64,000 bases of DNA, taken from NCBI GenBank assembly GCA_029858565.1, contig JAOUEV010000006.1:46963-110962 (forward strand). Direction: 5' to 3'. The position numbers and the translations under genes are program-made. The notes under the pieces were generated by a model that was given only the letters and a program-made list of their open reading frames with translations, searched no databases and was not told where the DNA came from. Positions 45,247 through 64,000 of the stretch are shown piece by piece. Origin of the DNA: Nitrospirota bacterium (GTDB taxonomy: Bacteria; Nitrospirota; UBA9217). Each line of letters begins with the position of its first letter. Position 1 is the first letter of the stretch.

Positions 45247-46461
45247 ATGAGCCTTGTCGGCAGGCTGGAAGACCTTGCCCTCCCTGATATCTTCCAGATC
45301 ATCAGCCTGAGCAAAAAGACCGGAACCCTGGTGGTGCGGAGCCGCAAAGGGACGGGGATGATCGTGTTCAAAAGCGGCCAGGTGATCCAGGCCGGCAGCG
45401 ACATCATCCGTGATTCGCTCGGGAACATACTCATTTCCCAGGGGATGATCGACCAGGCCGATCTGTCCTCGGCGCTCGCTGCGCAGAAGGCGAGCCCGGA
45501 CAAGCCGCTGGGCATGCTGCTCGTGGAGCTGGGAGCGACATCGGCCAAGGTCATCGAGGATGTGGTACGGCAGCAGATCGAGGAGATCATTTCCGACCTG
45601 TTGGCATGGGAGGAAGGGTTCTTCAACTTTGAGCTGGGCGAGATCGCTCCCAAGGACACGATCGAGGTCAACACCCAGGACTTCCTGCTGAAGGCGGGGA
45701 TCAGCGCCGAATACCTGCTCATGGAGAGCACGCGCCTGCTCGACGAGAAGCGCAAGGACCAGTCCCGCAAGGGCGGTCCGGCCGCCGCGCCCGCCGCACC
45801 GGCAGCGCCGGCAGCTCCGAAAGCTCCCAAACCCGCCGTTGCCGTGACCCCACCGGCAAAACCCGTCACCCGGGACAGCTACGAACCCGCCAAAGAAGAG
45901 TTCCGGTCGCGCATCGAGACCGAAGAGCCCACCAAGCAGATCACCACGCTCAGGTCCATGTTCGACGAACTGCGTTTCCCGACGGCGACGGCCGAGGTGA
46001 CGCTCCTTATCCTGCGATATGCAAGCGAGGTCGTGAACCGCGCCATCCTGTTCATGGCGAAAAAGGACGAGGTGCGCGGACTCGGTCAGTTCGGCATCGA
46101 GCTTGCCGCGGGCAAATCGCCGGACCTGGTGGTGCGGAACATCAGGATCCCGCTGAGCGAACCGTCGCTGTTCCAGAATGTCATCGAGAGCCGGCGCACC
46201 TACCTGGGACCGCTCGAAGCGAACGAACAGAACAACTACCTGATCAACGAGATCGGCGGACGAAAGCCTGACACGGTGCTGGTCATTCCGCTTGTCGTGG
46301 ACAACAAGGTAGCGCTCGTTGTGTACGGCGACAATCTTCCGGACCAGAAGCCCATCAAGGGTCTGGAGACCCTGGAGATCTTCATGAACCAGGCCGGCAT
46401 GGCCCTGGAAAAGGCCCTGCTCGAACGGAAGCTGGCCGAGCTCCAGAAGGAGCGGTCATGA
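45247..46461 (+). CDS. DUF4388/PATAN-like protein with C-terminal GAF-like domain
   Basis: MSLVGRLEDLALPDIFQIISLSKKTGTL..WEEGFFNF; C-terminal VIPLVVDNKVALVVYGDN. Confidence 0.85.
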   Translation: MSLVGRLEDLALPDIFQIISLSKKTGTLVVRSRKGTGMIVFKSGQVIQAGSDIIRDSLGNILISQGMIDQADLSSALAAQKASPDKPLGMLLVELGATSAKVIEDVVRQQIEEIISDLLAWEEGFFNFELGEIAPKDTIEVNTQDFLLKAGISAEYLLMESTRLLDEKRKDQSRKGGPAAAPAAPAAPAAPKAPKPAVAVTPPAKPVTRDSYEPAKEEFRSRIETEEPTKQITTLRSMFDELRFPTATAEVTLLILRYASEVVNRAILFMAKKDEVRGLGQFGIELAAGKSPDLVVRNIRIPLSEPSLFQNVIESRRTYLGPLEANEQNNYLINEIGGRKPDTVLVIPLVVDNKVALVVYGDNLPDQKPIKGLETLEIFMNQAGMALEKALLERKLAELQKERS

Positions 46462-46829
46462 GGAACGTCCTGATCGTCGAGGATTCGCGGGCGATCCGCT
46501 CGTTGATCCGCATCACGCTCGAGGAGGCCGGCGATTTCCTTACCGCGGAAGCGGCAAACGGATTCGAAGCGCTCAAGATGCTCCCGGGCCGGAAGTTCGA
46601 CCTCATCATTACGGACATCAACATGCCCGATATCAACGGGCTGGAGCTCATGGGATTCGTCAAGGCGAACCCGGCCTATCAGAACATTCCGCTGGTCATC
46701 GTGAGCACCGAGAAGAGCGACGAGGACAAGAAGCGCGGCATGGCAATGGGCGCGGTCGGGTACATTGTCAAACCCTTCAGAAAAGAAGAGCTGGTGGCCG
46801 CGGTGAACAGGGCGCTGGAAGGCAAATAA
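46458..46829 (+). CDS. cheY: CheY-like response regulator
   Basis: VLIVEDS, DLIITDINMPDINGLE, YIVKPF. Confidence 0.9.
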   Translation: MRNVLIVEDSRAIRSLIRITLEEAGDFLTAEAANGFEALKMLPGRKFDLIITDINMPDINGLELMGFVKANPAYQNIPLVIVSTEKSDEDKKRGMAMGAVGYIVKPFRKEELVAAVNRALEGK

Positions 46830-46930
46830 AGGATTAAGAGGATCAAAGGGCTAAAGGGCTAGCGTAATTGCGGACACGAGATTAGACGATTACACGGTAA
46901 TCCTCTAATCCTGTAATCCTTGAATCCCGA
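46830..46930. repeat. Short (~8-nt) tandem repeats arranged as inverted arms
   Basis: GGATTAAGAGGATCAAAGGGCTAAAGGGCT ... TAATCCTC TAATCCTG TAATCCTT GAATCCCG. Confidence 0.6.
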
Positions 46931-61655: not shown

Positions 61656-63633
61656 GCATCTGAAGGCCAAGCTGGAAAGCCGTGACGCAGAGGAGCGGCG
61701 TGAAGCCGCTGTAGACCTAGGACGAAGCGGCCGTGAGGCGGTCCCGCTTCTGCTGCGCGCACTGCGTGATCAGGATTGGCGGGTCCGGAAGACCGCGGTC
61801 GAGGCGCTGGTAAACGCCGGAGGGCGGGACGTGACCGCGGGTCTCGTGAAGCTCCTGAGCGCCGAGGACAACGCGGGAGCCCGCAACTCCTCGATCGAGG
61901 CGCTGGTTCTCCTGGGTCCGGCCGCGGTGGACGACCTGCTTTCTCTCCTGTCGGTCCGTGATGCCGATGTACGCAAGTTCGCCGTGGACATTCTCGGCGA
62001 CATCCGGGACCCGCGGGCGGTACCGCATCTGATCAACGGCCTGCACGATCACGACGAGAATGTGCGGGTGGCCGCTGCCGAGGCTCTGGGCAAGATCAGG
62101 GACCGCCGGGCCGTGGACCCGCTTGTCGCATGTTTGGCCTCCTCAGAGGAGGGGTGGCTCGATTATGCCGCGGCCGAGGCATTAGGTGAGATCGGAGATG
62201 ATCGCGCGCTGAAACCGCTGCTTGCGGCACTCGGCCGAAGCAGCCTCCGCGAACCGGTCCTGGAATCCCTTGGCAGGATCGGCAATGTGAACACTCTCGC
62301 GCCGCTCCTGAGCGGTATCGATGACCCCCTGCGGATCGTGCGTGAGGTATCGGTTGTGGCGCTGGTCGCCATCTTCCGGAAGAGCCTTCCCGCGGTCCGG
62401 GAGCGCATCGTTGCGGTCGTCCGGGCCGCATTGAGCGACCGTTCGGCGGCGTTCCTCGGAGAACTGATAGAGCGAAATACGGGAGAGCTCCAGAAGGCTG
62501 CGGTGACCGTGACGGGCTGGAGCGGCCGCACTGACGCGGTCCCGCGGCTCCTGTCGTTGTTGAGCGATGAGGAAATGGAGGAGCCTGTGGTCCAGGCGCT
62601 GTTATCGCTTGGCGCTGCGGGAGTTCCCTTGCTCCGCGAACAATTGACCGACGAGCGCGCAAAGGTACGGCGCGTCGCCGCCATGGTGCTGGGTGAACTG
62701 GGCCGCTCCGAGTCGGAGGAAGCGCTCATCAGGCTTCTGGCGGACGAGAACGGACATGTACGCGGCACCGCTGCAGAAGCGCTGGGTCGTCTCGGCAGCC
62801 GCGCTGCCATCCCTTCGCTCGTGGACCTGATGGAGGACGAGTACGAGAGCGTCCAGGAATCGGCTGTCAAGGCGCTTGTGGCGATCGGGGATGAGTCGGT
62901 CCTGGACGGCCTTCTACGCGACTTCACGACACGGGACGCTGGTATGCGCAGGAACATCGTGCGCCTGCTGGGCCGGATCGGGACCGACCGGGCGTCGGAC
63001 GCCCTGGTCTTCGCTCTCAAGGACGAGGAGCCGAGCGTTCGCAAGGCGGTCATTGTGGCTTGGGACGGCCTCTCCGGAGCCCGTTCTCCGCGGCCCCTGT
63101 TCCTCGCCGTGGCAGACGAGGATCCCGAGGTGCGGATGCTGGCCGCCGAGGCCCTGGCAAAGACCGGAGCGCCCGAGGTTGCGGACGCCTTGATCCCCCT
63201 GCTCAAGGACGAGGATCTCTGGGTCCGTGCCGCAGCAGCGCGGGGTCTCGGCAAGCTGGGCGCGGCAAAACATGGACCTGTCCTTGCCCGTCATCTGGAC
63301 CGCGCCAGCGATATTTTTCTGCTGGCGCTGGTGGATGTGCTGGGATCGACCGTGATCCCCGAGGCGCTTGAACCGCTGCTGGGCCTGACGGAGCATCCGG
63401 ACCCCGAGGTCCGGAAGACCGTGCTCCAGGCCCTGGCGTCCTACGACTGGGCCCGGGTGAGACCGGCCGTGCTCGCGCATCTGCTCGATGCTCATTGGGT
63501 TGTGCGCAAGGCGGCCGTGGAGATCCTCAAGCTGCGACGGGAGCCGACGGCGGAGCAGACGCTGGGCAGGCTGGCCGAGGATGATGACGATCCCAGCGTG
63601 AGACAGGCAGCGCGGGAGGCATTGGGGATATAA
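61642..63633 (+). CDS. HEAT/PBS-lyase repeat protein
   Basis: Many L..L.D....VR..AA.ALG.IG units. Confidence 0.93.
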   Translation: MSLLEHLKAKLESRDAEERREAAVDLGRSGREAVPLLLRALRDQDWRVRKTAVEALVNAGGRDVTAGLVKLLSAEDNAGARNSSIEALVLLGPAAVDDLLSLLSVRDADVRKFAVDILGDIRDPRAVPHLINGLHDHDENVRVAAAEALGKIRDRRAVDPLVACLASSEEGWLDYAAAEALGEIGDDRALKPLLAALGRSSLREPVLESLGRIGNVNTLAPLLSGIDDPLRIVREVSVVALVAIFRKSLPAVRERIVAVVRAALSDRSAAFLGELIERNTGELQKAAVTVTGWSGRTDAVPRLLSLLSDEEMEEPVVQALLSLGAAGVPLLREQLTDERAKVRRVAAMVLGELGRSESEEALIRLLADENGHVRGTAAEALGRLGSRAAIPSLVDLMEDEYESVQESAVKALVAIGDESVLDGLLRDFTTRDAGMRRNIVRLLGRIGTDRASDALVFALKDEEPSVRKAVIVAWDGLSGARSPRPLFLAVADEDPEVRMLAAEALAKTGAPEVADALIPLLKDEDLWVRAAAARGLGKLGAAKHGPVLARHLDRASDIFLLALVDVLGSTVIPEALEPLLGLTEHPDPEVRKTVLQALASYDWARVRPAVLAHLLDAHWVVRKAAVEILKLRREPTAEQTLGRLAEDDDDPSVRQAAREALGI

Positions 63634-64000
63634 ATGCTCACCGAGAACATCATCCCGCTGCCCGATGACGTGTTCCGGCTGCTGCGGGACTTCATCCACG
63701 ATTACTGCGGCATATTCTTCGATGACGGCTCGAAGTTCCTGCTTGAGCGCCGGCTCAACAGACGGCTTGCGCAGCATCAGCTGAAGAACTTCGAGGAGTA
63801 CTATCACTTCCTTCGCTATGACCGAAGGCGCGAAGAGGAGCTGGTCGTTCTGGTGGACAACCTGACGACCAACGAGACCTATTTCTTCCGGGAGAGCGCG
63901 CAGCTCAAAGCGTTCACCGATGAGATCCTGCCTGAGATCCGGGAGCGGAATGCCGCCCGCCGGACCCTGCGCATCTGGAGCGCCGGCTGCTCCACGGGCG
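63634..64000 (+). CDS. cheR: Chemotaxis methyltransferase CheR, 3'-truncated by the window edge
   Basis: Manual translation: FRLLRDFIHDYCGIFF..LTTNETYFFRE..LRIWSAGCSTG. Confidence 0.93.
   Translation, partial: MLTENIIPLPDDVFRLLRDFIHDYCGIFFDDGSKFLLERRLNRRLAQHQLKNFEEYYHFLRYDRRREEELVVLVDNLTTNETYFFRESAQLKAFTDEILPEIRERNAARRTLRIWSAGCSTG

Follow-up and report, generated by a model that had tools for sequence, protein, structure and literature searches.

Two-part conduits of the MtoAB and PioAB type are linked to iron oxidation, and the three-part MtrCAB conduit of Shewanella (6R2Q) unites a DmsE/MtrA-family decahaem cytochrome, an MtrB barrel and a surface lipoprotein with an MtrC/MtrF domain, all encoded by adjacent genes. 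Conduits of the Geobacter Pcc type (OmaB-OmbB-OmcB) are described as having an 8-haem periplasmic and a 12-haem outer cytochrome (PMC4245776). Among the chemosensory (Che) clusters of Geobacter, Tran et al. describe a beta group (cluster 5) without mcp genes and with preliminary links to the extracellular matrix (PMC2577667). The CheW, ATPase and CheA genes GSU2220-2222, named Esn, are reported to be necessary for growth on electrodes and not on Fe(III) oxide; the pathway acts on electrode colonisation with a diguanylate cyclase, its methyl-accepting chemotaxis protein (MCP), EsnA, is encoded elsewhere and is without a periplasmic domain, and its input is given as not known (PMC5585712). The two kinds of system meet in the DNA analysed here (the window), 64,000 nucleotides (nt) from a Nitrospirota bacterium (GCA_029858565.1, contig JAOUEV010000006.1, positions 46,963 to 110,962 of the forward strand; genome 100% complete, 144 contigs), in which genes for an Mtr-type conduit lie inside a beta-group/Esn-type Che operon and are followed by genes for a periplasmic binding protein and two chemoreceptors.

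Positions 45247-64000 hold 14 open reading frames (ORFs), every one on the + strand, and the ORF list together with a Pfam scan confirmed the domains that the original prediction, made from the bare sequence, had given for this co-directional run. Within the run lies a cassette of four genes: OMcyt, a 749-amino-acid (aa) surface decahaem lipoprotein with lipobox LAAC (50709..52907, ORF opening at 50658); PPcyt, a 347-aa decahaem lipoprotein of the MtrA/DmsE family (52911..53954, likely start 52941); an MtrB-like outer-membrane beta-barrel of 645 aa (53964..55901); and a PF04392 (ABC_sub_bind) periplasmic binding protein (55913..56842, alternative GTG start 55895; 109.8 bits). Ten haems had been predicted for each cytochrome, and this count holds, because each carries nine CXXCH motifs plus one CX3CH motif (CTSVCH in OMcyt, CLRACH in PPcyt) and the CX3CH motifs are kept in the orthologues of both. 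Both cytochromes have a lipobox, with the cysteine invariant in 33 of 33 PPcyt rows and seen in all 22 OMcyt N-termini listed. PPcyt scores above the cut-off of the DmsE/MtrA model (TIGR03508; 248.9 bits, cut-off 192.2), matches 6r2q_A over residues 64-338 (phmmer, E 6.5e-43), retains lipobox Cys36 and all ten haem motifs across 33 aligned sequences, and is conserved better than any other protein of the cluster (68-83% within the family). MtrA is not known to carry such a lipobox. OMcyt matches the MtrC/MtrF domain PF22113 (58.9 bits, cut-off 30), and its ten motifs form one contiguous block (residues 72-510), after which come about 240 residues without a haem motif. It is the least conserved cluster protein, at 35-45% identity among orthologues, and its AlphaFold2 model, built from 18 sequences, was unusable for a fold search (predicted local distance difference test (pLDDT) 44.5).

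The link of the barrel to MtrB rests on fold, since the sequence models fail: the MtrB/PioB models PF11854 and TIGR03509 gave 18.4 bits (cut-off 23) and 20.5 bits (cut-off 240), and a profile of 16 barrel orthologues found 0 matches at E up to 1 among PDB sequences. An AlphaFold2 model from 26 orthologues (pLDDT 81.7, predicted template modelling (TM) score 0.71) has 28 strand elements of at least 7 residues; its top Foldseek match is 6r2q_B (E 7.9e-19, TM-score 0.74/0.73), and the next match has a TM-score of at most 0.45. The original prediction had named both MtrCAB and the Geobacter Pcc systems as models for the conduit, of which the first is borne out by TIGR03508 and the 6r2q_B fold and the second is not, given 10 + 10 haems, an MtrA-family cytochrome and an MtrB fold. 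Sequence families and the modelled fold thus class the conduit as Mtr-type and not Pcc-type, and its genes as those of an MtrCAB-like haem wire spanning the outer membrane, into which the three proteins would assemble. It differs from Shewanella MtrCAB in its gene order (cap-decahaem-barrel), in the invariant lipobox on the MtrA-like protein, in a barrel that fails the MtrB/PioB models, in a cap with contiguous motifs and a haem-free tail, and in its position inside a Che operon ahead of a binding protein and an MCP. The MtoAB and PioAB conduits resemble those loci of relatives that have only decahaem and barrel, whereas the window has a third, surface cytochrome. OmcK/OmcL (GSU2203/GSU2204) are the nearest named models (NF041028, 238 bits, cut-off 325; NF041027, 58.7 bits, cut-off 350), but loci of that type lie outside the Che operon and their barrels have one CXXCH, whereas the window's barrel has none. 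In the window's genome, PPcyt is the sole TIGR03508 match above cut-off (1 of 17 matches) and the barrel is the sole MtrB/PioB-like match. A raw ORF scan of this genome found 48 ORFs with at least three CXXCH motifs, so other haem proteins are available for respiration.

The surrounding genes match the Geobacter beta-group/Esn class gene for gene. Ahead of the cassette are a PATAN (DUF4388) protein with an MshE-type cyclic di-GMP (c-di-GMP)-binding motif and a weak GAF domain (45247..46461; PF14332, 109 bits; NF053729, 42.5 bits, cut-off 38; GAF_2, 23.5 bits, below cut-off), a CheY-like receiver (46458..46829; PF00072, 100 bits), CheA with Hpt, dimerisation, HATPase and CheW-like Pfam domains (46936..48930), an ExeA-like or PEP-CTERM-ATPase-like AAA_22 ATPase that is the marker gene of this Che class (49006..49833; PF13401, 84.7 bits; TIGR03015, 238.5 bits, below the cut-off of 324.5) and CheW1 (49853..50602; PF01584, 129 bits). 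Behind the cassette follow MCP1 (56839..58932), MCP2 (59000..61105, likely start 59000, ORF opening at 58838), CheW2 (61146..61655, probable start 61146, ORF opening at 61053), a HEAT-repeat protein (61642..63633; HEAT_2, 331.6 bits) and the N-terminus of CheR (63634..64000), which is cut by the contig end that coincides with the window end. The rest of the operon (CheR C-terminus, CheB, GAF protein and CheY) is found at the end of contig C25 (13491-16512, -), which indicates that C88 and C25 abut in the genome; this tail has the same arrangement in the relatives G012 and G014. The resulting order, PATAN-CheY-CheA-AAA ATPase-CheW ... CheW-HEAT-CheR-CheB-GAF-CheY, recurs in G012 and G014, in the Desulfuromonadia genomes G180 and G165 and in the loci L079, L099 and L105 of Desulfuromonadales metagenome-assembled genomes (MAGs). 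The G180/G165 operon reads PATAN-CheY-CheA-ATPase-CheW-(CheY)-CheW-HEAT-CheR-CheB-GAF-CheY, and its proteins share 44% (CheA), 51-53% (ATPase) and 61% (CheR) identity with those of the window. Gene set and order are also those of the Geobacter beta group and Esn, in keeping with the Geobacter-type class, with HEAT and ExeA-like genes, to which the cluster had been assigned beforehand. Unlike the mcp-free beta group, the window's cluster contains genes for two transmembrane MCPs, together with the conduit and the binding protein; Thermodesulfovibrionia-like relatives hold one MCP gene. By analogy, the Che genes most likely control the colonisation of surfaces or behaviour that depends on pili, and not flagellar steering, because the first gene encodes a PATAN protein with a c-di-GMP motif and because of the Geobacter Esn counterpart.

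Within this operon, the cassette is joined most closely to the genes behind it. PPcyt and the barrel are separated by 9 nt, the barrel and the binding protein by 11 nt with the ATG at 55913 (-7 with the GTG at 55895), and the binding protein and MCP1 genes overlap by 4 nt, so the short gaps read earlier from the sequence were right provided that the ATG is used. The same spacing is seen across loci: the PPcyt-barrel gap has a median of 12 nt (n = 30), the barrel-binding protein gap a median of -7 (n = 29), and an ATGA overlap of binding protein and MCP1 is present in 26 of 31 loci. These overlaps indicate that the cassette belongs at least to the MCP-CheW-HEAT-CheR half of the operon. The sole real gap across loci precedes the cassette (median 87 nt, n = 23, range 50-160 nt). 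In the window it is a 106-nt spacer (50603..50708, +) and not one of 55 nt, as a GGAGG ahead of 50709 marks the likely OMcyt start; it contains a weak hairpin and a degenerate promoter-like motif. In four of six close relatives aligned (L023, L025, L040 and L043), this spacer carries the motif CTGACA-N17-TACAAT, which is likely an internal promoter between CheW1 and OMcyt; the window copy has decayed to GTGAAA...GTGAAT. A terminator at the CheW1 stop was also considered, but the site is a 6-bp hairpin and terminator-like sites number 13 against 13.6 in shuffles, so it was given no weight. A further sigma-70-like promoter match lies ahead of the first gene (45181..45208, +; TTGCAA-16-TATAAT, TG extended, 10 of 12 consensus matches), in a region with 10 such sites against 4.1 +/- 2.1 in shuffles; the match is one to the consensus only. 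The neighbours upstream of the operon (FtsK, LolA and DUF520) are unrelated to it.

The position of the conduit is conserved in relatives. Barrel homologues are present in 19 of 41 related genomes (16/24 of the same family and 2/2 of a second family, plus that of the window itself), and in 18 of 18 relatives' loci, spanning these two Nitrospirota families, the barrel lies within the same Che cluster and in the same order. The original prediction would have been undone by cytochrome genes that are separately transcribed and absent from this operon in all relatives; cytochrome and barrel genes are instead present at this place in relatives of both families, with OMcyt missing from five of the 18 loci. 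The second-family loci keep the order at 51-57% identity. A search based on the ATPase returned 458 confirmed loci, with uncultured Nitrospirota MAGs as the closest in named records; the best 80 were kept, comprising 36 close loci (ATPase at least 69% identical) and 44 distant ones. Among the close loci, 15 have the full triad with binding protein and MCP1, 1 is cut inside OMcyt, 3 have PPcyt and barrel only, 2 have only binding protein and MCP1 (L071 and L075), 12 have CheW followed directly by MCP1 with no cassette, and 3 are cut or odd. The last group includes L041 (10993-20213), where the Che cluster ends after CheW1 and unrelated opposite-strand genes come next, a putative rearrangement or assembly chimera. 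The distant loci comprise 3 from the second family with PPcyt-barrel-binding protein-MCP, 35 without the cassette and 6 that are cut.

On a CheA tree (80 rows), loci with and without the cassette are interspersed within the family, implying several losses or transfers. OMcyt alone was lost in eight of 90 loci classed (L029, L039, L045, L047, L060, L077, L080 and L083), and the states of loss are nested: OMcyt alone, the conduit with binding protein and MCP1 kept, or everything but MCP1. No readable locus among the 18 relatives' loci and the 80 from the ATPase search has a conduit without MCP1. This nesting fits a chain running from OMcyt to PPcyt and barrel, to the binding protein and to MCP1, a pattern that deletions anchored at one end could mimic. 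Pairwise identity of PPcyt, of the barrel and of the binding protein rises and falls with that of CheA (Spearman 0.87-0.89 over 300 non-independent pairs from 25 loci; 0.73-0.79 within the family), which fits long co-inheritance.

Linkage between the conduit and a membrane sensor extends beyond Che clusters. The barrel profile matched 77 of 301 Nitrospirota genomes, including 34 of 56 in the window's family (counted without G000), all 10 in the second family and genomes from some 15 further families. Outside the window's family, 39 flanks were examined, of which 2 had no barrel ORF and 4 were cut behind the barrel or binding protein, leaving 33 readable loci; 27 of these place a membrane sensor beside the PPcyt-barrel pair. 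Thirteen are stand-alone PPcyt-barrel-binding protein-MCP units, 6 continue from PPcyt, barrel and binding protein into genes for a PF12974 binding protein and a histidine kinase with a HAMP domain (a sigma-54 regulator comes next in 2), in 2 the binding protein is followed by a 13-haem cytochrome and an MCP, 5 lie inside Che clusters and 1 has its MCP upstream. The remaining 6 are without a sensor, and 4 of these are also without a binding protein. Most loci of other Nitrospirota families have PPcyt and barrel and no surface cytochrome. As a sensor stands beside the pair outside Che clusters too, the linkage to a transducer is independent of the Che cluster. All 7 kinase ORFs carry a CXXCH at residue 89, between two predicted membrane segments, and in two extra MCPs a CXXCH is found at residue 143, likewise in the periplasmic part, one of them matching the class 40H sensor Pfam domain. 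Periplasmic c-haem redox sensors are a known class (GSU0582, GSU0935 and DcrA; PMC8396549). In those PAS-like sensors the haem sits in the receptor, whereas the window's MCPs have none and a separate binding protein stands between; the likeness is that sister loci place haem-bearing transducers beside the same conduit. Histidine kinases with CXXCH-89 beside MtrAB-like pairs are found in L146, L148, L154, L157, L159 and L163. MCPs of 955-970 aa occur in L166 (8775-11684), L167 (1946-4831), L168, L170 and L171; in L166 and L167, the two that were scanned, a PF12974 domain is fused behind the cytoplasmic signalling domain, and the conduit of L166 is without a separate PF04392 gene.

Desulfuromonadales genomes also encode PPcyt-barrel-binding protein triplets (51-53%, 23% and 31-34% identity, the barrel with one CXXCH), elsewhere in the genome, and one such locus reads barrel-binding protein-MCP. 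Genes for MlaE, an ATP-binding cassette (ABC) ATPase and MlaD directly precede the triplet in two of these loci (L128:5034-7675 and L129:4155-6920). Where barrel and Esn-type ATPase share a contig (G063, G069, G070, G071 and G087), they are 155 kb to 1.45 Mb apart. A GSU2204-family barrel is encoded 14-15 kb away from the Esn-type ATPase in three genomes (G180, G165 and G223), equal to the GSU2204-GSU2221 spacing reported in G. sulfurreducens (PMC5585712); G254 and G219 have no Esn-type ATPase. The operon of G180 is followed, 74 nt behind its last CheY and on the same strand, by a gene for a 27-haem cytochrome with c7-type repeats (L131:13526-15700, -), which has the same place in G165. Genes for a DUF3373 protein, an 8-haem cytochrome, a decahaem cytochrome and a one-haem MtrB/PioB barrel converge on the 27-haem gene from 5-7 kb off.

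The binding protein and MCP1 are the components through which the conduit could reach the Che pathway. A signal peptide can be read from the translation of the binding protein, which scores 103 bits against the TrpX model (below the cut-off of 390). MCP1 has two transmembrane segments, a periplasmic domain of about 137 residues (weak sCache_3_2), a HAMP domain and an MCP signalling domain. The original prediction had proposed modelling the two together. When the binding protein was modelled in complex with a pair of MCP1 periplasmic domains, the score was 0.56 (best of 3 controls, 0.00). Of 157 solved complexes, 116 attain the mark used, as do 2 of 215 mismatches, but only 18 of those 157 and both mismatches do so with a score of 0.60 or less; the calibration holds only roughly for this run, which used its own alignments and the domain in two copies. 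The runs share at least 90% of their contacts, and partner pLDDT is at least 92. This model lends weak support to a contact between the binding protein and the periplasmic domain of MCP1.

Since a binding protein and a transmembrane transducer come behind the conduit in nearly all cases, the simplest reading is that the conduit feeds the transducer. In such a scheme, the lipid-anchored MtrA-family decahaem would thread the MtrB-like barrel and be capped by the fast-evolving surface decahaem lipoprotein, and the redox state of this wire would follow from its contact with electron acceptors or donors outside the cell (Fe/Mn minerals, electrodes or partner cells), so that electrons could pass outwards or inwards. 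The PF04392 protein would report the state of the wire in the periplasm to the periplasmic domain of MCP1 and may read either whether the decahaem is oxidised or reduced, or else a small ligand with redox activity. MCP1 and MCP2 would then drive the Esn/beta-group pathway of CheA, two CheW proteins, the AAA_22 ATPase and CheY, with the PATAN/c-di-GMP protein, the HEAT protein, CheR/CheB and the GAF protein as other proposed members. We put the chances at about even that the conduit and binding protein are, as a whole, an input cassette for the receptor that senses minerals or electrodes outside the cell, beyond any part in respiring them. A broader version, held a little less firmly, treats the haem wire as an antenna that reads the presence or redox state of solid acceptors or donors and is linked by a dedicated binding protein either to chemoreceptors or to kinases that bear haem, with PF12974 as a second binding protein in the kinase variants and with the device built into an Esn-type operon here. 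A precedent in behaviour exists in Shewanella, where congregation and energy taxis need mtrBC/omcA and a Cache-domain MCP and a published model has the outer-membrane cytochromes sense (PMC5789149). Those genes are unlinked and no relay is known, whereas in the window conduit, binding protein and receptor are translationally coupled.

Several observations weigh against conduit sensing. The promoter-like motif before the cassette means that the upstream CheA half may be a separate transcript. MCP1 and MCP2 have 0 CXXCH motifs, PF04392 proteins are annotated as small-molecule binders (as in the TrpX model match), and the periplasmic domain of MCP1 is 40-55% identical in most loci both with and without the cassette, so MCP1 need not depend on it. 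In Desulfuromonadales, the triplet lies within 100 kb of an Esn-type ATPase in 0 of 5 same-contig cases. Transposon sequencing of G. sulfurreducens on electrodes gave mean log2 values of -0.42 for GSU2203, +0.12 for GSU2204 and +0.02 for GSU2210, compared with -2.07 for GSU2221 (PMC5585712); as these Esn-adjacent cytochromes show no electrode defect, the proximity of barrel and ATPase is treated as a lead only. The cassette is moreover dispensable, being absent from 12 of the 36 close Che clusters. This last count also bears on an explanation in which the conduit is an ordinary respiratory outlet or inlet for electrons, merely co-expressed with a surface-life pathway and sending no signal to the receptor, because losses on this scale would be unexpected for a main respiratory outlet. 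Co-expression is otherwise well served by conduit parts that are bona fide Mtr relatives, by their being the sole MtrA/MtrB-type pair in the genome, by the persistence of the MCP1 sensor domain without the cassette and by the Desulfuromonadia 27-haem cytochrome, which indicates that cytochromes ride along with Esn-type operons in more than one way; the pathway itself is tied to electrode biofilms in Geobacter (PMC5585712). It leaves unexplained the constant place of the binding protein between barrel and transducer, the joining of the pair to MCPs or haem-bearing kinases in 22 of the 33 loci outside Che clusters, and an overlapping-codon coupling that runs to the MCP and not to the CheA half. 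Sensing through the conduit and co-regulation with surface behaviour had both been offered by the original prediction, and both find support here, the former at the even chance given above and the latter as an unlikely though serious contender.

Less probable again is a solute route, in which the binding protein recognises a small molecule or metal ion that depends on the barrel and cytochrome for its supply (such as Fe(II)/Mn(II) freed by reduction, or a redox shuttle) and presents it in the window to the MCP and in Geobacterales to ABC transporters, so that the unit would serve chemoreception or uptake of soluble products. A 2024 survey reads Geobacterales operons of MtrA/MtrB-like genes with ABC ATP-binding and substrate-binding genes as transport and suggests metal uptake (PMC11492766), which counts against conduit sensing as well. 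PF04392 is a solute-binding family, MlaE/ABC/MlaD genes stand ahead of the triplet in the two Desulfuromonadales loci, and binding protein and MCP1 are kept without a conduit in L071 and L075. On the other side, the Pfam scan found no permease or ATPase transport gene in the window's cluster, and the periplasmic haem motif that the kinase variants themselves possess suggests that electrons, and not a solute, are the signal. The decahaem occupies the lumen of the barrel in the solved Mtr complex, so that a solute would have scant space to pass. An accident, meaning a recently inserted or mis-assembled cytochrome island that came to lie in a Che operon by chance, could account for the lower G+C content (0.55-0.56 at 51-53 kb) and negative GC skew in an assembly of 144 contigs. 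It is very improbable, being contradicted by the order conserved in all 18 relatives' loci and in the second family at 51-57% identity, by the loci of the ATPase search and by the tracking of CheA by the cassette proteins; the best-matching DNA data set, which may be the source sample, also contains 0.99 of the sampled words of this stretch.

How bacteria find and commit to insoluble acceptors, electrodes and syntrophic partners is an open question. Here, the window and about 50 related loci present conduit, binding protein and receptor as one coupled unit and so offer concrete protein pairs. In a search of open-access PMC and bioRxiv, neither a porin-cytochrome conduit within a che operon nor a unit of MtrAB, binding protein and MCP or kinase was found described; the published remark that comes closest is the transport proposal of the 2024 survey (PMC11492766). 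The Mtr conduit and the Esn-type Che cluster are each of a known kind, and there is a substantial chance that their combination represents a new way of sensing. If conduit sensing is true, the cassette would supply the missing extracellular input of a pathway that Geobacter needs on electrodes and would constitute a portable gene cassette for extracellular redox sensing, an electrical 'touching' of minerals. MtrAB-like genes in metagenomes, now scored as markers of iron respiration or oxidation, would be read differently, and bioelectronic sensors could be built with parts of the cassette. Should there be no such relay, Mtr-type conduits would still be under chemosensory-operon control across a poorly known phylum.

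Other features of the window were also recorded. The cytochrome and barrel genes (51000-55000) have a G+C content of 0.55-0.59 (0.55-0.56 at 51-53 kb) and a negative GC skew, and the Che genes around the cassette have a G+C content of 0.60-0.65 and a positive skew; the lower G+C could stem from amino-acid make-up or from an old foreign origin. At 1153-8013 (+), a 2286-aa protein with SpvB, TcdB middle/N-terminal, FG-GAP and RHS-repeat domains is a predicted polymorphic-toxin-like protein of the Tc/Rhs type. The window is also rich in additional signalling genes, which encode a receiver-PAS-histidine kinase (10045-13170, +), a 4HB MCP (17023-18915, +), a PAS-GAF-HD(HD_5) protein (27900-30743, -) and a cytoplasmic PAS-PAS MCP (31631-33736, -).

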